Counted from the stretch's first letter, positions 16,935 through 26,863 are shown. The stretch: 64,000 nt of DNA from an uncultured Acidobacteriota bacterium (GCA_963804995.1 CAWDSK010000003.1:288001-352000), one strand, 5' to 3'. Notes: a model not told the origin generated them from the letters alone. Numbers and translations are program-made.

Positions 16935-19277
16935 ATGAAGGCGACGGCCGCACGGCTCCGGCTCACCCTAGGAATGGTTTTCGTGGCTCTCCTGGCCTCA
17001 ACCTCGCTCTCGGCGCAGAGCAACACCGGAGAGCTGCGCCTGAAGATGACCGACCCTGCCGGGCTGGGGGTCGAGAGCACGGTCGAGTTGACCAGCGACT
17101 CGAACCAGGTGCGGCGGACGCTCACGACAGACGACGCAGGGAACGCCGTGGCCAAGTTGCTGCCCTTTGGGATCTACAGAATCCGCGTCGCGCCACCGGG
17201 ATTTGCGCCCTTCTCGCAATCGCTGGAGATTCGTACCGCCCTCCCCACTTCCTTCCGCATCAAACTCGACCTGGCCACGGTGAGCGCTTCCGTGGTCGTT
17301 AAAGACGCGGATACGCTGATTGATCCCCACGCCACGGGCACGATCGAGCGCATTGGTTCCGACACGCTTCGCGACCGGCTGACTTCCCTGCCGGGCCGCT
17401 CGCTCGTTGACTTGGTGAATTCCGAACCGGGCTGGCTATACGAAGGCAACGCGGTTCTGCATCCGCGCGGCTCCGAATACCAGACTCAGTTCGTGGTGGA
17501 CGGAATTCCGCTCACGGACAATCGCTCGCCAAGCTTCGGGCCTGAACTCGAAGCCGACGACGTGGAATCGATAAGCATTTACACCGCCAACATCCCGGCC
17601 GAATACGGAAGGAAAATGGGCGGCGTAGTGGAGGTGAACACGACGAACGACTCACGCCCGGGGTTCCACGGAAAAGTGGTGGGGGCGGGCGGCAGCTTCG
17701 ACACTGCGGATGGCTACGGGCAGGCGCAGTATGCCTGGGGCGAGAATACGTTGGGAGTAAGCGCCTCAGGCGCCACCACCCATCGGTATCTGAACCCTCC
17801 GGTCGTCGAAAATTATACGAATGCGGGCACGACCTCAGATTTCGGGGCGCACTACGAGCGGGATTTGACGGATCGCGACCGCTTCAATGCGATTCTTCGG
17901 CATGAACAGGTGGGATTCGAAATCCCCAATGAGCAAGTCCAGCAGGCCGCGGGGCAGCGGCAAGATCGCTCGAATGACGAGACGATGGGAGTCTTGAGTT
18001 ATGAGCACATCTTCTCCCCCAGTGTTTTGGGGGATCTCCGGGCGATGGTGAGGTCGGACGACAACCGCCTTTGGTCGAACCCCTTCGCGACGCCCATCCT
18101 CGCCGGGCAGGAGCGAGGCTTGCGGGAAGGCTATTTCAAAGCCAGCGTGGCGGTACACCACGGCCGTCACGAGTGGAAAACCGGCATCGAGGCGGACTTC
18201 GCGTATCTTCACGAACAGTTCAGCGACACCCTAACTGACCCCACCCAATTTGACCCCGGAACGCCCCCAAAATTCAACTTCTTCGGCCGCGGAAACGATC
18301 TCGAACAATCCTTTTTCGTACAGGACCTCATCCGTCTGGGCGCATGGACCCTAAGCGCGGGCCTGCGATGGGATCACTATCAACTGTTAGTGAACCGGAA
18401 CGCGCTGAGCCCGCGGCTAGGAATCGCTCGCTATTGGGAAAAGGCCAAACTGGTTCTGCACGCTTCCTATGACCGAGTCTTCCAAACGCCGGCTTTTGAG
18501 AATATTCTTCTCTCCAGCTCTCCCGAAGTTGCCGTTCTGAACCCCAACGTCCTGCGGCTGCCCGTCGAGCCCTCACAGGGTAATTACTACGAGGCCGGGC
18601 TTAGCAAGGGCTTCTTCGGAAAATTCAAGCTGGACGCCAACGCTTTCGAGAGGCGGGTGAGCAACTTTGCCGACGATGACGTGCTGCTGAATACCGGTGT
18701 CAGTTTTCCCATCGCCTTCCGCAAAGCCGCTATTTACGGGGCCGAAGGGAAGCTCGATTTCCCCCGCTGGGGGCGGCTCTCCGGGTACACCAGCTATTCG
18801 TATCTGGTGGGCGCCGCCTATCTGCCGGTAACCGGCGGGCTCTTCCTGGGAACGGACTCAACCGATGCGCTCAGCGCAACTACCGGCCGGTTCTGGATTT
18901 CCCAAGACCAACGCCACAGCGTGCGCACCAGGTTTCGATATCAACTGAAGCCGCGACTGTGGGCGGCCCTGGGTGGCGAGTATGGGAGCGGTCTGCCCGT
19001 GGCATTCGATGGCACGGAGCAGCAAGCCATCGCCCAGTACGGCTCGGAGATTGTGGACCGCGTGAACCTGGCCGACGGCCGCGTGAAGCCGTCGCTCTCC
19101 GTCAACGCCTCTATGGGCGCTGACCTCTGGAAGAGTGAGCGCCTGACGATGCGGGTGCAAGCGGACGCGGAGAATCTGAACAACCGACTCAACGTGATCA
19201 ATTTCGCTGGCCTCTTTTCTGGAAACGCCGTGGCGCCCCCCCGCAGCGGGACAATTCGCCTTACTGCCGATTTTTAG
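16935..19277 (+). CDS. TonB-dependent receptor with N-terminal carboxypeptidase-regulatory-like domain
   Basis: Signal peptide from MKATAARL, plug motif FVVDGIP, IPAEYGRKMGGVV, GLRWD, SPRLG, C-terminal Phe; alternative start at 16878. Confidence 0.9.
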   Translation: MKATAARLRLTLGMVFVALLASTSLSAQSNTGELRLKMTDPAGLGVESTVELTSDSNQVRRTLTTDDAGNAVAKLLPFGIYRIRVAPPGFAPFSQSLEIRTALPTSFRIKLDLATVSASVVVKDADTLIDPHATGTIERIGSDTLRDRLTSLPGRSLVDLVNSEPGWLYEGNAVLHPRGSEYQTQFVVDGIPLTDNRSPSFGPELEADDVESISIYTANIPAEYGRKMGGVVEVNTTNDSRPGFHGKVVGAGGSFDTADGYGQAQYAWGENTLGVSASGATTHRYLNPPVVENYTNAGTTSDFGAHYERDLTDRDRFNAILRHEQVGFEIPNEQVQQAAGQRQDRSNDETMGVLSYEHIFSPSVLGDLRAMVRSDDNRLWSNPFATPILAGQERGLREGYFKASVAVHHGRHEWKTGIEADFAYLHEQFSDTLTDPTQFDPGTPPKFNFFGRGNDLEQSFFVQDLIRLGAWTLSAGLRWDHYQLLVNRNALSPRLGIARYWEKAKLVLHASYDRVFQTPAFENILLSSSPEVAVLNPNVLRLPVEPSQGNYYEAGLSKGFFGKFKLDANAFERRVSNFADDDVLLNTGVSFPIAFRKAAIYGAEGKLDFPRWGRLSGYTSYSYLVGAAYLPVTGGLFLGTDSTDALSATTGRFWISQDQRHSVRTRFRYQLKPRLWAALGGEYGSGLPVAFDGTEQQAIAQYGSEIVDRVNLADGRVKPSLSVNASMGADLWKSERLTMRVQADAENLNNRLNVINFAGLFSGNAVAPPRSGTIRLTADF

Positions 19278-19310
19278 GCGCTGCCATCAAGGCCCTTGCT
19301 ACCGTCGGGT

Positions 19311-19575
19311 GGGTAGTCGGTCAGTTTGAATCCGCAAGCCGGGTGGTTCGTTTGTGACGCATACATACAAGGCAATGTATGCGACCCCCCGAAAGGCGGA
19401 TTTACTCCGCCATATGGCGAGGTAAACTCGCCGCTACGGCAAACAGCCCTGCCCCCCGACCCAGGGTATTGGTTCAGTTTGGTTGTTTGTAGCGGCGGTC
19501 TATGACCGCCGACTTTTTAATTCAATAAGTTCCGGCGCTCATAGAGCGCCGCTACAGCAAACTGCACAACTACCC
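19311..19575. repeat. two tandem composite palindromic elements (outer GGTA..CAGTTTG/CAAAC..CC IRs around REP-like units)
   Basis: Second unit has an inner doublet TGTAGCGGCGGTCTATGACCGCCG...CGGCGCTCATAGAGCGCCGCTACA at 19488-19556. Confidence 0.75.
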
Positions 19576-19589
19576 GACCCAGCTTGGGG

Positions 19590-19618
19590 TTGACATTTTG
19601 CCGCATGCACCTTATGCT
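19590..19618 (+). promoter_or_regulatory. sigma70 promoter for the leader/sulfite reductase transcript
   Basis: TTGACA (19590-19595), 17-bp spacer, TATGCT (19613-19618). Confidence 0.75.
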
Positions 19619-19630
19619 TTTATTTTGCTG

Positions 19631-19708
19631 ATGCGTACCCCCTTCCAACCCGGCATGGCCATGTGCTGTTGTACGGTGCCAGCGCCGACGTGTGGGGAAC
19701 GTGCTTAG
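19631..19708 (+). CDS. putative Cys-rich attenuator leader peptide MRTPFQPGMAMCCCTVPAPTCGERA
   Basis: 25-codon ORF with TGC-TGT-TGT (19664-19672) plus a fourth Cys, located between the promoter and the terminator. Confidence 0.7.
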   Translation: MRTPFQPGMAMCCCTVPAPTCGERA

Positions 19709-19736
19709 CCACCAGCTAGCCTAAGGATCTAATTCC

Positions 19737-19781
19737 AACCCACCGCCGGACGCAAGTCGAGCGGTGGGTTTTTTGTTTTTT
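19737..19781 (+). terminator. intrinsic terminator in the 5' leader (attenuator)
   Basis: AACCCACCGC...GAC-GCAA-GTC...GCGGTGGGTT followed by TTTTGTTTTTT, ending about 15 nt before the reductase ATG. Confidence 0.85.
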
Positions 19782-19795
19782 GGAGAGCACTGGGA

Positions 19796-22051
19796 ATGAA
19801 AGCTTCGAATTCACTTTGGAAGGAACGCCTCGCCGGCAAGATGCCGGAGGCCCTCGCCCACGAGGTTGACAACTTCGAGTCGGACATTGGTCTGAGGAAG
19901 CAAGGCAAACTCAACGAGCGCCTTTTTGCTGAAACGCGTTTGCGCAGAGGGGCCTACGGGCAGCGCTACGACAACGGTCAGCGGCACGATGGCAAGAAGG
20001 TCCAGGAGTTCGCCTACCCCACCGGCGGTTTAACCAAAGGCCCCCATACCCTGTGGGACGCCCCGGGGATGCAGCGCATTAAGATTCCAGGCGGCGGCCT
20101 GAATGCCTCGCAGCTTGAAACCTTGGCGGACTTGGCCGAGGAGTACTCGGACGGAATCGCGCACATCACCACCCGCCAGGACGTGCAGCTTCACTACGTT
20201 CACATCGACGACACTCCCTCCTTGATGCGCCGCCTGGCCGCGGCCACCATCACGACGCGCGAGGCCTGCGGGAACTCGGTGCGCAACGTTACCGCGTGCC
20301 CCTATGCAGGCGTTTGCCCGGATGAAGTCTTCGACGTCACCCCCTACTCCCTTGCGCTTTCTAGGTTCCTGCTGGGCCATCCGGATTGCCAGAGCTTTGG
20401 CCGGAAATTCAAGCCCTCCTTCAGCGGGTGCGCGCAGCACGCATGCGGCCTCGCCAACATGCACGACATGGGATTGGTAGCCGTCACGCGCACTGAGAAC
20501 GGCAAGCAGGTGCGGGGCTTTGCTCTGTACGTGGGCGGCGGCCTGGGCACGGTTCCTTACCAGGCAAAACTGTTCGACGCATTTCTGCCGCCGGAAGAAC
20601 TGCTACCCATCGGGCAAGCCATCGCCAGGGTCTTTGCAAGGCTGGGCGAGAAGAAGAATCGCAATCGGGCCCGGATTAAGTTCTTAATCCACGATTTGGG
20701 TATCGAGAAATTCAAGGAGCTGGTTTGGGAGGAGCGCAAGACGCTGCCTCCCGATCCGCGCTGGACGGAATTCCTCGAAACCCTGGAAACCTTCAAGGAA
20801 GAGCCGTTGCGCCCGCCCGGAGAGGCACACCCGCCGGGGTCAGAGGACTTCGAGCGCTGGCGCGCTTCGAACGTGCGGCCACAAAAACAGGATGGCTACT
20901 CAACCGTCACGGTGACCCTCCCCCTGGGGGACATCACCGCCAATCAACTCCGCTCGCTCGCCGATATCGTGCGCCGCTTTACGCGCGAGACGGTGCGGAC
21001 AACCGTGGAACAGAATTTCGTCATTCGCTGGGTCAGCAACGCCGATTTGCAGGACATCCACGAAGCCTTGACCGCCGCGGGCTTGGGACAGCCGGGCGCC
21101 GGAACCATCGTGGATATCGTATCCTGCCCCGGAACGGACACGTGCAAGCTGGGAATCTCCTCGTCACGTGGCCTTGCCTCGGAACTGCGGAAGCGGCTCG
21201 CCCAGAAAAGCTTTGAGCTGGACGAGGCGGTCAACAATCTGCACATCAAAGTCAGCGGCTGCTTCAACAGTTGCGGCCAGCACCACGTAGCGGACCTGGG
21301 TTTCTACGGTGTCAGCCGCAAAATGGCGGGTTACGCGGTGCCGCACTTCCAGGTAGTCCTGGGAGGAGAATGGGATAACAACGCCGGCTCGTACGGGCTG
21401 CCCATTGTGGCGATCCCGTCCAAGAACATACCGGAAGTTGTGGCCCGCTTGACCGATCGCTATGTAGCGATGCGGAAGAATGGCGAAAGCTTCAAGGATT
21501 TTGCCAAGCGAATCGGGAAAGCGGAAATCAAGAATCTGCTGGAGGATCTTACCCGGATACCCACCGAGGAAACCGAGCGTTCGTTCTTCAGCGACTGGGG
21601 CGATCCACGTGAATACAGCTTGGGTGATTTGGGGGTCGGTGAATGCGCCGGCGAAGTTGTGTCCGCTATCGAATTCGACCTGGCGGCTGCAGAAAGAGAA
21701 GTCTTTGAAGCGCAGTTGGACTTGGAAAAAGGCCATTTTGAGCCGGCAGCCAGGACTGCCTACCTGGCTATGCTTCATGCGGCCAAAGCGTTGGTCAAGC
21801 TGGAACTCCGAGACATCTCAGATGATCCAGACCAGATCGTTCAGGAATTCACTGCCCGATTCTATGACACGCAGAAATTCTTCGATTCCTTCGCAGGAGG
21901 AAAATTCGCGCAATACTTGTTCGCAGCCCATCAAGCGTCAGGCAAGCCCGTGAGTCCGGACTCAGCACGCTACCTGATCGACGAGGCACAACTGTTTATT
22001 GACGCCTCACACGCCTGCTATAACCGCTTGGGAGCCGCCGTAGTTGCGTAG
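19796..22051 (+). CDS. siroheme/[4Fe-4S] sulfite (or nitrite) reductase with C-terminal HEPN-like helical domain
   Basis: RLRRGAYGQR, MQRIKIPGG, HITTRQDVQ, CGNSVRNVTACP, CPGTDTCKLG, SGCFNSCGQH, DWG..Y...G.GECAG. Confidence 0.92.
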   Translation: MKASNSLWKERLAGKMPEALAHEVDNFESDIGLRKQGKLNERLFAETRLRRGAYGQRYDNGQRHDGKKVQEFAYPTGGLTKGPHTLWDAPGMQRIKIPGGGLNASQLETLADLAEEYSDGIAHITTRQDVQLHYVHIDDTPSLMRRLAAATITTREACGNSVRNVTACPYAGVCPDEVFDVTPYSLALSRFLLGHPDCQSFGRKFKPSFSGCAQHACGLANMHDMGLVAVTRTENGKQVRGFALYVGGGLGTVPYQAKLFDAFLPPEELLPIGQAIARVFARLGEKKNRNRARIKFLIHDLGIEKFKELVWEERKTLPPDPRWTEFLETLETFKEEPLRPPGEAHPPGSEDFERWRASNVRPQKQDGYSTVTVTLPLGDITANQLRSLADIVRRFTRETVRTTVEQNFVIRWVSNADLQDIHEALTAAGLGQPGAGTIVDIVSCPGTDTCKLGISSSRGLASELRKRLAQKSFELDEAVNNLHIKVSGCFNSCGQHHVADLGFYGVSRKMAGYAVPHFQVVLGGEWDNNAGSYGLPIVAIPSKNIPEVVARLTDRYVAMRKNGESFKDFAKRIGKAEIKNLLEDLTRIPTEETERSFFSDWGDPREYSLGDLGVGECAGEVVSAIEFDLAAAEREVFEAQLDLEKGHFEPAARTAYLAMLHAAKALVKLELRDISDDPDQIVQEFTARFYDTQKFFDSFAGGKFAQYLFAAHQASGKPVSPDSARYLIDEAQLFIDASHACYNRLGAAVVA

Positions 22052-22150: not shown

Positions 22151-22753
22151 ATGGAACTTCAGCACGTCAACGTTAAACTCCTAATGAAGAATCTGGAGGA
22201 ACATGACCTCAACCCCTTGATTCCGGTCTTTCATAGCTGGATCCAGGATCAGGGCCGCGGCGAGCTTCTGATTGATGTTGCCGATTACCGGCATGTCCCG
22301 GCGGGGCCGGGTGTGGTGTTAATCGGACACGAAGCCAATTACAGCCTCGATAACACCGGCGGGCGCTGGGGGGTTCGATACAATCGCAAGGCTGTGCTGG
22401 AAGGAACTAACCAGGATCGGCTGACGCAAGCCGCACAGGCGGCCCTTGCTGCTTGCCAGCGCCTCGAAACGGACCCGCGCCTGAATGGGAAGATTCGGTT
22501 TGAGGGCCGGGAGATCGAGGTGTTCATAAACGACCGCCTACTGGCCCCGAATACGGAAGAAACCCGCGCCGCGGCTGAGCCTGAGTTCCGTCCCTTTTTC
22601 TCGCGCTTATTTGGAAGCGTTGAATTTGATCTTGTTTACCCCCAAGACCCCCGCAGCTTATTCTCAGTTAGGGCAACGGCGTCCCAACCCGTTAGCACAC
22701 TGACTTTGCTAAACAACTTGTATTCGCTCGCCTCCGTGGCCGATCGAAATTAA
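22151..22753 (+). CDS. conserved hypothetical protein
   Basis: IPVFHSWIQ, LIDVADYRHV..GPGVVLIGHE, NDRLLAPN; directly downstream of the reductase. Confidence 0.75.
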   Translation: MELQHVNVKLLMKNLEEHDLNPLIPVFHSWIQDQGRGELLIDVADYRHVPAGPGVVLIGHEANYSLDNTGGRWGVRYNRKAVLEGTNQDRLTQAAQAALAACQRLETDPRLNGKIRFEGREIEVFINDRLLAPNTEETRAAAEPEFRPFFSRLFGSVEFDLVYPQDPRSLFSVRATASQPVSTLTLLNNLYSLASVADRN

Positions 22754-22856: not shown

Positions 22857-23687
22857 ATGCACGATATCTGTGTGTGGACCGCCCTGGCGTTATACGGCCT
22901 GGGAATTTTGCTGATCATTCCATCCGTCAAGCGACGCCGCCCCTCGCTCTCCCCCGCGTCATTAGGAGCGCTAGGGCTGGGTCTAGTTGCCCACGCCGCG
23001 GCCTTAGCAACTGTAGTCGCACGCATTCATCGTCTGCCGGTCACCGACGTGCGCAGCGCTTTGTCGTTTTACGCATTCATGGTGACTCTTGCCTTCTTCT
23101 TCGTCTACTTGCGCTACCGGATTGTTTCGCTCGGACTCTTCATGCTGCCGCTGGTTTTCCTGCTGACGCTCACCTCCGCACTGCGCCCCGAAGGGTCCTT
23201 TGATTCATCGGCGTTTCGTGGTGGCTGGCTGCTGGTGCATATCTGTTCGATATTTCTTGGCTACACGGCATTCTTTCTAACCTTTGTCGCGTCCGTCATG
23301 TACCTGATTCAGGAGCGAGAGCTGAAATCACGGCAGCCGCGTGGATTTTATTACCGGCTGCCCTCGCTCGAAGTCTGCGACGAGATCTATTACCGCTCGC
23401 TGGTGTTGGGACTTCCCTTCTTGAGTTTGGGAATTCTAACGGGCTTTGTGTGGGCCAGCCGGACGTGGAAAGGCCCCTGGGAACTTGACCCGAAAATTCT
23501 CGCCTCAATGGTGACTTGGCTCATCTACCTTGTGCTCTTTTCCACAAGAGTCAGCGGCGTCTGGCGAGGGCGGCGCGCTGCGTACCTTGCTATTTTCGGA
23601 TTCGCCGCCATCCTGGTGACCTTCATGGGAATCAGCGTGCTAAGCGGACAGCACGGGTATATCCCCAAGCTGGGGTCTGGGGGCTAG
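22857..23687 (+). CDS. ccsA: cytochrome c assembly protein (CcsA/HemX-like)
   Basis: About 8 TM segments, W..VH, LIQERELK, LPSLE, WELDPK (WWD-like). Confidence 0.85.
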   Translation: MHDICVWTALALYGLGILLIIPSVKRRRPSLSPASLGALGLGLVAHAAALATVVARIHRLPVTDVRSALSFYAFMVTLAFFFVYLRYRIVSLGLFMLPLVFLLTLTSALRPEGSFDSSAFRGGWLLVHICSIFLGYTAFFLTFVASVMYLIQERELKSRQPRGFYYRLPSLEVCDEIYYRSLVLGLPFLSLGILTGFVWASRTWKGPWELDPKILASMVTWLIYLVLFSTRVSGVWRGRRAAYLAIFGFAAILVTFMGISVLSGQHGYIPKLGSGG

Positions 23688-23707
23688 GGGCTGGGCACTG
23701 GGAAATT

Positions 23708-24973
23708 ATGAACTTGACGCTGTTGGGCATCAATCATCGCACGGCGCCGGTGGAGATCCGGGAGAGGATGAACATCCCGGAAGCACGCCTGGCTGAAGCC
23801 GTCTCTGATTTGGTGCACCGAACGGGCATTCGCGAAGGGATGATTCTTTCCACCTGCAACCGCGTGGAGGTGATGACCTCCGCGGAAGACGACGTGGATG
23901 CAGAGACGATTATCCGCGGCTTCCTGGCCGATCATCACCACTGTGACCTGACGCACTTCGCCCACTTCTTCTATCGCCTGCGCCAGCAGGACGTGGTGCG
24001 CCACCTCTTTCGCGTGGCCTCCAGTTTGGATTCTATGATCCTCGGCGAGCCACAAATCCTGGGACAGATGAAGCAGGCGTACTCTGTGGCGCGCGCCGTA
24101 GGTGGACTGCACGGCGCCTTGAACGAGGTGGTCGACCAGGCGCTGGCGGTGGCGCGGCGGGTGCGTCGCGAAACGGCTTTGGGGTCCGCGGCAGTATCGG
24201 TCTCCTACGCGGCAGTGGAACTGGCCAAAAAAATCTTCGGCAGCCTTGCGGGCAAAACCATCTTCGTGGTGGGGGCGGGCAAGATGAGTGAGCTCGCCGC
24301 CAAACACCTGCTGCGCAGCGGCGCCAGCAGCATTCTGGTCAGCAATCGCACCTACGACCGGGCTGTGGAACTGGCCGCCGCTTTTCACGGGACAGCGGTG
24401 CCGTTTGAAGAACTCTTCGACCATCTCGGCCAAGCGGACATCGTCATCAGCTCAACTGGCGCGCCCAATACAATCATCAGCAAGGCGCAAGTTGAAAAGA
24501 TCCTATCCGCGCGCCGCAATCGACCGGTGTTTTTCGTGGACATCGCCGTACCACGTGACATCGATCCCGCCGTCAATGAACTGGATAATGCTTTTGTTTA
24601 TGATATCGATGACCTGGGCCACGTTGTCGAAGCCAATAAGAAACAGCGCGAGCAAGAGGCGGTGTGGGCCGAGGACATTGTCCAAACCGAAGTGCAGAAG
24701 ACTATGAAACGCCTGGCGTCACGCGATGTGGTGCCCACCATCGTGGCCCTGGAAGGACGCCTGAACCGCATTCGCGAAAGCGAAATGGACCGCTACCAGG
24801 GCCGCCTGGGGAACCTTTCGCCCGAGCAGCGCCAGGCCGTCGAGGCGCTGACCCGCGGCATCCTGAACAAAATTCTGCACGGGCCCATCACCGAGCTCAA
24901 GAGCGGCGTGGGTGAACCGGAGCACGTGGCGCTGGTGCGGTTGATTCATAAAATTTTCGGGTTGGAGGAATAA
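23708..24973 (+). CDS. hemA: glutamyl-tRNA reductase
   Basis: GINHRTAPVEIRE, LSTCNRVE, LDSMILGEPQILGQ, VGAGKM, DIAVPRDID. Confidence 0.97.
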   Translation: MNLTLLGINHRTAPVEIRERMNIPEARLAEAVSDLVHRTGIREGMILSTCNRVEVMTSAEDDVDAETIIRGFLADHHHCDLTHFAHFFYRLRQQDVVRHLFRVASSLDSMILGEPQILGQMKQAYSVARAVGGLHGALNEVVDQALAVARRVRRETALGSAAVSVSYAAVELAKKIFGSLAGKTIFVVGAGKMSELAAKHLLRSGASSILVSNRTYDRAVELAAAFHGTAVPFEELFDHLGQADIVISSTGAPNTIISKAQVEKILSARRNRPVFFVDIAVPRDIDPAVNELDNAFVYDIDDLGHVVEANKKQREQEAVWAEDIVQTEVQKTMKRLASRDVVPTIVALEGRLNRIRESEMDRYQGRLGNLSPEQRQAVEALTRGILNKILHGPITELKSGVGEPEHVALVRLIHKIFGLEE

Positions 24974-25069
24974 GCTCGCGGATGAGCTACGCCGAATGCT
25001 CAATTCGCTGCGGCGCAGACTCGGCTGATTGCTCGTCACTTGTCACTCGTCACTGGTCACTGTTTTGTT

Positions 25070-26020
25070 ATGAAACTTACCATCGGCTCACGCGGCTCTA
25101 AACTCGCGCTTTGGCAGGCCCAATGGGTCCGCGACCAGCTTACGGCCAAGGGCTTCGAGGTGGAGGTCCGCATCATCAAGACCACAGGCGACAAACTTCA
25201 AGCTTTCGCCCCCAACGAGTCCTTGCCGGCGTCGATCGCCGAGACGGTGGCGCAGGTTGGAAGCAAAGGTATGTTCATCAAGGAAATCGAAGAAGCACTG
25301 CTGGCTGGAGAAATTGATGTGGCCGTGCACAGCCTGAAAGATCTCCCCACCGAGCCGCCCGCCGGTCTCGTGCTCGGCGCGGTACCACAGCGTGAGGACG
25401 CTCGCGATGTCTTCATCTCGCGGAACGACCAGACCCTTGCGGCTCTCGCACCGGGCGCGCGGGTCGGAACCAGCAGCTTGCGCCGCCAGACTCAATTGTG
25501 TTCCTTGCGGCCCGACCTCACTTTCGAAGCGATGCGAGGCAATCTCGATACTCGCCTGCGGAAACTCGAACGTGGCGATGCGCAGGCACTGGTACTGGCC
25601 GCGGCGGGCGTGCACCGACTGGGCCTGGCCGGGCACATCACGGCGTACTTCTCCTTTGAGCAGATGTGTCCGGCCGTGGGCCAGGGCGCACTGGGCATAG
25701 AGATTCGAGCTGATGACCCGAAGGCGCGCGAAGCCGTCGAGCCGCTTGATCATGTATCGACACATCAGGCCGTGCGCGCGGAGCGTGCTGTGCTGCGCCG
25801 CCTGGGCGGCGGTTGTCAGGTGCCCATTGCCGCGCACGCGGTTTCAGAAGATAGCCAACTGCACTTGCGCGGGTTGGTTGCTAACCTGGACGGAACGCGA
25901 GTCATACGCGCGCAGGCCGTTGGCGCCGCCTCCGATCCCGAGGCGCTGGGCACGGCGGCGGCCGAAGACCTGCTGCAACAGGGCGCTCGGGATATTCTCA
26001 ACTCGATTGGCCAGGCGTAA
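25070..26020 (+). CDS. hemC: hydroxymethylbilane synthase
   Basis: IGSRGSKLALWQ, KGMFIKEIE, AVHSLKDLP, GTSSLRR, RGNLDTRL, GGCQVPI. Confidence 0.97.
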   Translation: MKLTIGSRGSKLALWQAQWVRDQLTAKGFEVEVRIIKTTGDKLQAFAPNESLPASIAETVAQVGSKGMFIKEIEEALLAGEIDVAVHSLKDLPTEPPAGLVLGAVPQREDARDVFISRNDQTLAALAPGARVGTSSLRRQTQLCSLRPDLTFEAMRGNLDTRLRKLERGDAQALVLAAAGVHRLGLAGHITAYFSFEQMCPAVGQGALGIEIRADDPKAREAVEPLDHVSTHQAVRAERAVLRRLGGGCQVPIAAHAVSEDSQLHLRGLVANLDGTRVIRAQAVGAASDPEALGTAAAEDLLQQGARDILNSIGQA

Positions 26021-26050
26021 GACCTTGCTCCTATCGTGATGGGTGTAGAT

Positions 26051-26863
26051 ATGGGGTCGCACAATCACGTGCATTCGCCCGAGCACCTGCCACTTTCCGG
26101 CAGGCGCATTGCCATCACCCGCGCCCGCGACCAGGCCAGCGTGCTGCGCGAAGAGCTTGCGGCAATGGGCGCGGAAGTAATTGAAATTCCGACGATTGAA
26201 ATTCGACCGCCTGATTCATGGGAGCCGCTCAACGCCGCGATTAGCAAGCTTGATAAATTTGATTACCTGCTGGTGACCTCCGCGAATGGGGTGCGAAACT
26301 TCCTGGCGCGCCTTGCAGCGTGCGGGCGAGACGTGGGGGATCTGAGGGGCCTGACCATCGGCGCCATCGGCCCTGCTACGGCGGCGGAATTCTCACGTGC
26401 AGGCGTGAAAGTGGATTTGCTGCCGCGCGAGTACGTGGCTGAGGGGTTGCTCGCGGCGCTCGGCGACCGCGACTTGCGTGGTAAAGCATTCCTCATTCCA
26501 CGCGCGCGGGTGGCGCGAGACGTGGTGCCGCGCGTGCTCGAGGAGCGGGGCGCCCGGGTGGAAGTCGTGGAAGCCTACCAGACGGTCGCCCCTGAAATCT
26601 CCCCGCAGGAACTCACGCTCCTGCTCACGCCGCCACCGGACGCCATCACCTTCACCAGTTCGTCTACTGCGATAAACTTTGCGAAGCTCGTGGGCGAAGG
26701 CCGGCTCGTGGAAACGCTGCGCGGAACAGCTATCGCCTCCATCGGCCCGGTCACCTCCGGAACCCTCGGCAAGCTTGGCCTCACGGTAAACCTCGAAGCG
26801 CAAGAATCCACAATGGCGGGACTAGTAGAGGCAATTCAAGGATACTTTTCCAAAAACTGTTAG
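26051..26863 (+). CDS. hemD: uroporphyrinogen-III synthase
   Basis: IAITRARDQA, TSANGV, IGPATA, FTSSSTA, ASIGPVT; start uncertain (26036-26051). Confidence 0.92.
   Translation: MGSHNHVHSPEHLPLSGRRIAITRARDQASVLREELAAMGAEVIEIPTIEIRPPDSWEPLNAAISKLDKFDYLLVTSANGVRNFLARLAACGRDVGDLRGLTIGAIGPATAAEFSRAGVKVDLLPREYVAEGLLAALGDRDLRGKAFLIPRARVARDVVPRVLEERGARVEVVEAYQTVAPEISPQELTLLLTPPPDAITFTSSSTAINFAKLVGEGRLVETLRGTAIASIGPVTSGTLGKLGLTVNLEAQESTMAGLVEAIQGYFSKNC

Follow-up and report, generated by a model that had tools for sequence, protein, structure and literature searches.

A predicted cysteine-codon leader-peptide attenuator upstream of a probable sulfite reductase gene in an uncultured Acidobacteriota bacterium

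In the classical attenuators, such as trpL of Escherichia coli and hisL of Salmonella, a leader with codons for the end product is combined with alternative RNA helices (described in part in bioRxiv 10.1101/834739). We analysed a stretch of 64,000 nucleotides (nt) from an uncultured Acidobacteriota bacterium (GCA_963804995.1, CAWDSK010000003.1:288001-352000; referred to as the window) in which a short open reading frame (ORF) with three consecutive Cys codons and an intrinsic terminator precede the gene for a siroheme reductase. This arrangement is probably (with a probability of about 0.88) a trp-type ribosome-mediated transcription attenuator, which would read the supply of cysteinyl-tRNA and control a probable sulfite reductase together with a partner gene.

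Leaders with Cys codons have been described before. They were first predicted in Actinobacteria, without terminators according to the accessible text (PMC1262725). The polycysteine leaderless small ORFs (sORFs) of mycobacteria comprise Ms5788A, Ms4527A, Rv2334A and Rv2391A in the accessible parts of two studies (bioRxiv 10.1101/834739, PMC13096801), the second of which has Rv2391A among the Cys-response attenuators. As far as the accessible text of the first goes, Ms5788A of Mycobacterium smegmatis hides a Shine-Dalgarno sequence, transcription was demonstrated not to terminate there, the mechanism was left open for the other loci, where no conserved terminator was found, and attenuation by a cysteine upstream ORF (uORF) is stated to have been previously undescribed. 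In the Rhodobacterales, the uORFC-8-2 motif of cysS has been predicted, in the part of the paper concerned with it, to consist of a tandem-Cys uORF and an intrinsic terminator, with stalling leading to read-through (Brewer et al. 2021, PMC8632094). Of the attenuators predicted in Acidobacteria, almost none has a function, according to the accessible text of PMC2965389. Our literature search, with subscription papers mostly outside its scope, found neither a sulfite reductase described with a terminator-type Cys attenuator nor a description of such an attenuator in Acidobacteriota; the supplementary lists of PMC2965389 may include these terminators. The accessible parts of PMC13236596, PMC11109978 and PMC11361707 hold nothing further on the Cys leader element. 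An initial annotation of the window, made by a model from the sequence alone, had known of no classical terminator-type case on a sulfite reductase, and none was found, but the prior art is closer than it stated, given the terminator-type Cys uORF before cysS and the Rv2391A sORF.

Like trpL and hisL, the locus has a leader ORF with codons for the probable end product, the potential for 1:2, 2:3 and 3:4 helices and an intrinsic terminator before what would be the first biosynthetic gene. It differs from them in its Cys sensor codons, in lacking a Shine-Dalgarno sequence, in an ORF whose start codon is only 0-7 nt away from the predicted 5′ end, in the acidobacterial host and in sulfur assimilation as the putative target. 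Tandem Cys codons (there at positions 14-15) and an intrinsic terminator are shared with uORFC-8-2, both being predictions only. That motif belongs to cysS and to another phylum, has two Cys codons and is dominated by UGC, whereas here three or more Cys codons occur and UGU dominates; the accessible text describes no antiterminator covariation there, and the two are compared here at the level of their descriptions. With the mycobacterial sORFs, in so far as their accessible descriptions go, the locus has in common a leaderless or nearly leaderless ORF with a Cys run, and several loci under one signal (a "ribulon"). Rv2391A precedes Rv2391, which we take to be the M. tuberculosis NirA/SirA sulfite reductase, a homologue of the reductase in the window. 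Unlike in the mycobacterial descriptions, there is here both an intrinsic terminator and an antiterminator, each with covariation, and the Cys run lies in the middle of the ORF. In the mycobacterial type of translational attenuator, a Cys tract at the 3′ end of the ORF pairs with the Shine-Dalgarno sequence downstream and no terminator exists. The locus does not fit this type, as its Cys codons pair in the 1:2 hairpin and its terminator is conserved.

Features of the locus are collected in Table 1. Promoter, 25-codon leader, three Cys codons, terminator and the ribosome-binding site and ATG of the reductase had all been listed in the initial annotation and were recovered at the same positions. 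The promoter matches the consensus at 10 of 12 positions and is the only promoter-like site found by a promoter scan between 19000 and 20200, where shuffled sequences give 0.5. Transcription is predicted to start at about 19625-19626. The leader ATG lies 12 nt 3′ of the -10 box, giving a predicted 5′ untranslated region of 5-6 nt, and in some relatives the start codon coincides with the predicted +1. The Cys run is found mid-ORF, about 12 codons ahead of the stop codon, and a fourth Cys codon occurs at 19691-19693. The terminator hairpin was missed by a simple terminator scan, probably because an inner stem occupies its loop, and was recovered by folding. Rfam covariance models (riboswitch, T-box and leader families) gave no match near threshold in 19200-19900.

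Table 1. Features of the predicted Cys attenuator, of the genes behind it and of further leaders in the genome. Genome coordinates are given as G000:Cn, the window being G000:C3:288001-352000; all other positions refer to the window.
Feature	Position	Strand	Details
Sigma-70-type promoter, TTGACA-17-TATGCT	19590..19618	+	TTGACA 19590-19595, TATGCT 19613-19618, 17-nt spacer
Segment 1:2 hairpin of untranslated leader, predicted	19627..19709	+	hides segment 2; -35.5 kcal/mol
Leader ORF, 25 codons (25 amino acids)	19631..19708	+	ATG 19631, TAG 19706-19708
Three-Cys run TGC TGT TGT, predicted sensor	19664..19672	+	conservation across orthologue loci, in-frame test
Segment 2, predicted antiterminator 5′ strand	19682..19696	+	duplex with 19739-19753, -17.7 kcal/mol
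Segment 3, common to antiterminator and terminator	19739..19753	+	folding, alignment
Intrinsic terminator	19739..19781	+	stem 19739-19746/19761-19768 with inner stem, T6-G-T6 19769-19781, -21.7 kcal/mol
Shine-Dalgarno-like GGAGAG of the reductase	19782..19787	+	sequence; GGAG 19782-19785
Siroheme/4Fe-4S reductase, NirA/SirA type, 751 amino acids	19796..22051	+	PF01077 and PF03460, twice each
Conserved 200-amino-acid protein	22151..22753	+	directly behind the reductase wherever downstream DNA sufficed (58 of 58 loci)
Second Cys leader, 31 codons, three-Cys run	G000:C2:95043-94800 (L032:8044-7796)	-	promoter, antiterminator, terminator
His-rich leader, 24 codons	G000:C2:750119 (L033:8120-7965)	-	terminator, antiterminator; before his operon

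Folding of the region points to two competing states. The sequence 19625-19795 folds better than all of its 200 shuffles (z -3.1). With a ribosome on one of the three Cys codons, whichever is chosen, the RNA left free pairs segment 2 with segment 3, and this helix takes up the entire 5′ arm of the terminator, so that the two folds are mutually exclusive. With the ribosome at the stop codon, or with no ribosome and the 1:2 hairpin formed, the terminator has a probability of 1.0. A mutually exclusive antiterminator, as had been proposed in the initial annotation, is thus found, but not in the helix named there, in which an 8-mer at 19692-19699 pairs with a 9-mer (GTGGGGAA/TTCCAACCC). The 9-mer does occur twice (19643-19651 and 19733-19741), and these are its only copies on the + strand of the window. 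However, the 8-mer/9-mer helix contributes only -4.1 kcal/mol by itself, is absent from the minimum free energy (MFE) fold of every state and involves a 9-mer that, as such, is not kept in orthologues; it was rejected as the core of the switch. The helix of segments 2 and 3 overlaps it but is the longer of the two, with most of its length 3′ of the 9-mer.

Counted from the base with which its A-site codon begins, a ribosome covers about 12 nt, and segment 2 starts 12 nt past the corresponding base of the last Cys codon. The spacing therefore fits a device in which a ribosome on the Cys codons frees the antiterminator strand while a ribosome at the stop codon covers it. We propose that the ribosome would load just behind the 5′ end of the RNA and trail the RNA polymerase. 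When cysteine is scarce, it would stall on the Cys run, covering segment 1 and about 12 nt past the A-site codon. Segment 2 would be left free to capture segment 3 as it emerges, no terminator could form, and the reductase would be transcribed. When cysteine is plentiful, the ribosome would reach the stop codon and cover segment 2, the terminator would fold, and transcription would end at about 19775. Without translation of the leader, segment 2 would stay hidden in the 1:2 hairpin, resulting in termination by default.

To follow the element across relatives, orthologue loci were taken from 61 related genomes (30 loci) and from the best 80 of 595 matches among genome contigs. Removal of 4 loci without upstream DNA, 2 with less than 140 nt and 8 duplicates from these 110 left 96, window included, and 600 upstream regions from the window's own genome served as controls. 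The initial annotation had made its reading depend on conservation of the Cys codons. A short ORF with three consecutive Cys residues (CCC) precedes the reductase in 66 of the 96 loci but occurs in only 4 of the 600 controls, so that the reading is not refuted at this point; by a looser rule (10-50 codons, at least two adjacent Cys and at least three in total) the figures are 73/96 and 43/600. Triple runs of ten other amino acids are found 0-1 times per 96 loci. A leader is present at each of the 16 same-family loci for which there is upstream DNA, TTGAC being identical in 16 of 16 aligned leaders, and the promoter pattern is present 5′ of 55 of the 73 leaders. When the start codon is picked from the promoter alone, as the first RTG behind it, 50 of 53 loci have the TGY run in the same frame, and the distances from ATG to Cys run are multiples of three ranging from 24 to 51 nt. 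The leaders use TGT over TGC at 270:96, while TGT is rare in the reductase coding sequences of the same loci (91:1006). In the structure set (63 loci whose terminator is at least as stable as -15 kcal/mol), 56-76 nt separate the last Cys codon from the terminator (median 66, standard deviation 3.7), and this spacing is constant even though the leader stop codon shifts among loci (r -0.82). Beyond these loci, both close reductases in 20 further stretches are preceded by leader and terminator, as are 9 of 18 distant ones (33-59% identity); three more of the distant reductases have a Cys ORF for which no terminator was found, and six have neither, one of these six being truncated where its contig ends.

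The terminator is well supported by covariation, counted on a MAFFT alignment. Its pairs hold in 89.9% of cells, and double changes occur in 8 pairs, a number reached in none of 500 shuffles. The antiterminator pairs hold in 79.8% of cells (63 loci) versus 31-59% in slid registers, and their 14 double-change cells are likewise matched by 0 of 500 shuffles. In 57 of 63 loci the terminator arm is sequestered in the MFE fold of the stalled-ribosome fragment, and the duplex of segments 1 and 2 is better than the shuffled mean in 54 of 63. A base of the common core that is either A or G is matched by T or C in the terminator in 63 of 63 loci; of the 11 loci where it is G, 6 have the matching C in the antiterminator as well. 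In summary, conservation at a fixed spacing extends to the promoter, the short ORF with its Cys run in frame, the terminator and the alternative helix. From this we infer translation of the leader, stalling, termination and a response to cysteine. All traits by which a classical leader-peptide transcription attenuator can be recognised in sequence appear to be present, the substrate of the enzyme being the exception.

A number of observations weigh against this reading. At equilibrium the full transcript adopts the terminator even when segment 2 is free (-35.5 versus -27.8 kcal/mol). With the terminator ahead by about 8 kcal/mol, the switch must be kinetic and decided during transcription, which is generally held to be the case for attenuators. 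Double changes in the antiterminator involve 6 pairs only, a number matched in 112 of 500 shuffles, and slid registers yield 16-27 double-change cells as compared to 14. Among 26 representatives below 70% identity, segment 2 pairs better with its own arm than with the arms of others (-17.1 versus -15.1, permutation p 1.5e-4, although p values overstate significance as the loci are related to one another), but the own arm ranks first in 2 of the 26 only. Upstream and spacer controls give -9.1 and -4.7 for arm pairing (63 loci), yet segment 2 beats 95 of 100 of its own shuffles in just 31 of 63 loci (median z -1.7). Part of the pairing is compositional, because a G-rich/C-rich core is common to the loci. 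We thus consider the antiterminator to be mutually exclusive with the terminator as predicted, with a covariation that is moderate and partly compositional. The leader has no Shine-Dalgarno sequence, 10 of 73 leaders lack a strong terminator by the rule used (it is present in 63), and 23 of the 96 loci have no leader. Finally, 44 of 63 leaders carry a further Cys codon 3′ of the run, where stalling would favour termination; this codon usually lies inside segment 2, where it is probably held by pairing.

The same data bear on other explanations. The leader might sense cysteine but act mainly on translation initiation, with the hairpin hiding the Shine-Dalgarno sequence of the reductase beside or instead of terminating transcription. 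The base of the hairpin can be extended by pairing of 19733-19738 with the GGAG region (probability of being unpaired about 0.1, 4 of 7 bases), the median distance from terminator end to reductase start codon is 25 nt, and the sole Cys attenuator dissected experimentally, mycobacterial Ms5788, works on translation in the accessible account. On the other hand, the stem is directly followed at its 3′ side by a conserved U tract, the bases that would pair with the Shine-Dalgarno sequence vary among orthologues, and up to 160 nt lie between hairpin and ATG in some loci. We therefore regard a mainly translational switch as unlikely.

Even less probable is that the ORF is incidental and that the UGU repeats bind an RNA-binding protein or form a ligand-binding RNA, flipping terminator and antiterminator in the manner of TRAP or a riboswitch. 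A dominance of TGT would also be expected of a motif at the nucleotide level, and a leader without Shine-Dalgarno sequence suits this view. It leaves unexplained that the run keeps its frame with a promoter-proximal start codon and its distances in multiples of three, that TGC substitutes synonymously, that start and in-frame stop are kept and that a His leader of the same design exists in the genome, and no Rfam family reaches threshold. About as improbable is a Cys-rich peptide that is itself the product, metal-binding or redox-active, made from a small unit transcribed on its own, from which transcription would leak constitutively into the reductase. While 20% of leader residues are Cys and a PxCGG-like tail recurs in many leaders, the peptide has no Pfam match, its N-terminal half and its length (15 to more than 30 amino acids) vary freely, and the conserved tail is encoded by the antiterminator strand. 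L086 has an ORF that ends two codons past the run, and there the antiterminator strand persists behind the stop. Ribosome-mediated transcription attenuation is thus preferred over all three.

The reductase has two NIR_SIR repeats, the siroheme/4Fe-4S cysteines and the second active-site lysine, which favours sulfite over nitrite. Its closest solved structure is 1zj8, the ferredoxin-dependent NirA/SirA of M. tuberculosis (E 6e-55). Both have EACG..R and RK.K, where wild-type plant nitrite reductases have QSGM and RKWN; the window protein is longer and differs by a weak HEPN match at its C-terminus (E 7e-4, below the cut-off). NirA is also the best NCBIfam family (288 bits against a cut-off of 523), and no NCBIfam equivalog cut-off is reached. 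M. tuberculosis NirA is reportedly a sulfite reductase, to judge from the title of Schnell 2005. A literature search on residue-level sulfite/nitrite specificity found nothing. The substrate is not settled by sequence, because a homologue from Pseudomonas aeruginosa, also called NirA, has been demonstrated to reduce nitrite, according to the accessible text of PMC8092218. We consider the enzyme a probable assimilatory sulfite reductase, an assignment that leans on the Cys leader. The genome, which is 92% complete, has no second match of its kind.

The 200-amino-acid protein encoded behind the reductase has no Pfam or NCBIfam family, and its Atlas neighbours are unnamed. Its gene is likely the second gene of the regulated unit, and the protein is a candidate partner or maturation factor of the reductase. 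An extension of the operon to ccsA-hemA-hemC-hemD (22857-26863) was rejected, as just one of the 44 leader-bearing loci tested has these genes behind the reductase; a TATACT box located at about 22818 suggests that they have a promoter of their own. No tauE, cysH, cysG or sat was found in about 4 kb examined at the reductase loci.

A strict genome scan for promoter, short ORF and terminator returned three places: the reductase, C2:95043 and C2:750119. The leader at C2:95043 sits before genes for a TauE/SafE permease and the adenosine 5′-phosphosulfate (APS) reductase cysH. This tauE leader has CCC in 23 of 25 loci of the genus, the two exceptions being paralogues of about 55% identity, and a terminator was detected in 15 of the 23. 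It would place sulfate uptake and APS reduction under the same cysteine signal. The His-rich leader precedes a hisI-like ORF (unconfirmed), hisG, hisD and a hisC-like ORF, with hisG and hisD identified by NCBIfam, and is a candidate for a classical His attenuator in an acidobacterium. Both leaders fold into the same alternative states as that of the reductase. Neither strict nor relaxed scans found Cys leaders before the cysK, cysE, cysS or sat genes of the genome. Two scan matches were set aside as chance, one inside a long ORF (C1:62080) and one without promoter (C1:654018).

At the 23 leaderless loci, an upstream search for a displaced leader followed by a U tract was negative. They include a block titled Versatilivorator and relatives, which has another conserved upstream region. 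In nine of them (L024-L026, L104, L106-L108, L111, L112) this region lies about 90-130 nt 5′ of the reductase and has a -10-like box, TATAGAAT, which in most is preceded by an imperfect palindrome overlapping the -35 region. This lineage is possibly under the control of a DNA-binding protein in place of attenuation. In leaderless L023, terminator and antiterminator-like sequence are present, but the ORF is degenerate, reads CYCY and misses the usual stop, which possibly represents a decaying or altered attenuator. The leaders of L167 and L169 are longer (40-43 codons), and each has two Cys clusters apart from one another, which may be sensors in tandem.

Some further observations concern repeats and sulfur genes of the genome. 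Interspersed GC-rich inverted repeats, including a terminator-like hairpin (19493-19511), occupy 19430-19565, 5′ of the promoter. Similar repeats occur in L004 and elsewhere in the genome and are probably of the repetitive extragenic palindrome (REP) type. A tandem repeat of about 195 nt lies directly 5′ of cysS (G000:C5:179200-179630), where there is no Cys leader. A cluster of cysG, cobyrinate diamide synthase (DsrN-like), sat, DsrK-like and aprA genes (G000:C3:1739000-1757200; L126, L128) resembles dissimilatory sulfur metabolism; the contig ends 3 kb past aprA, and dsrA and dsrB were not found in the 92%-complete assembly. A second copy of sat, apparently frameshifted near its 5′ end and preceded by a truncated cysG fragment (G000:C2:592700-594150; L127), is likely a decayed duplicate of the start of that cluster.

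As read from sequence, the element would be new in the amino acid sensed, in its target and in the phylum, but not in kind, as it follows classical leader-peptide attenuation. Cysteine has long been absent from the amino acids with classical attenuators, the dissected case being translational and the terminator-type case in print a prediction. E. coli controls its sulfur assimilation through the CysB protein. With some reserve, we lean towards a wider interpretation, in which Acidobacteriota possess a transcriptional cysteine ribulon. Near-leaderless Cys leaders with a common antiterminator/terminator core would act on sulfite reductases (down to 34% identity) and on tauE-cysH, with RNA in the role of CysB or CymR. 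This would be the first demonstrated intrinsic-terminator cysteine attenuator, and the large, unannotated reductase family with its 200-amino-acid partner would form the assimilatory sulfite reduction module of the phylum. As all parts of the attenuator are contained in about 190 nt with a sigma-70 promoter, it may be tested directly in a laboratory host. The leader may serve as a functional label for an ambiguously annotated family of nitrite/sulfite reductases and its partner gene, and it likely reveals how sulfur assimilation is regulated in an abundant but little-studied phylum of soil bacteria.

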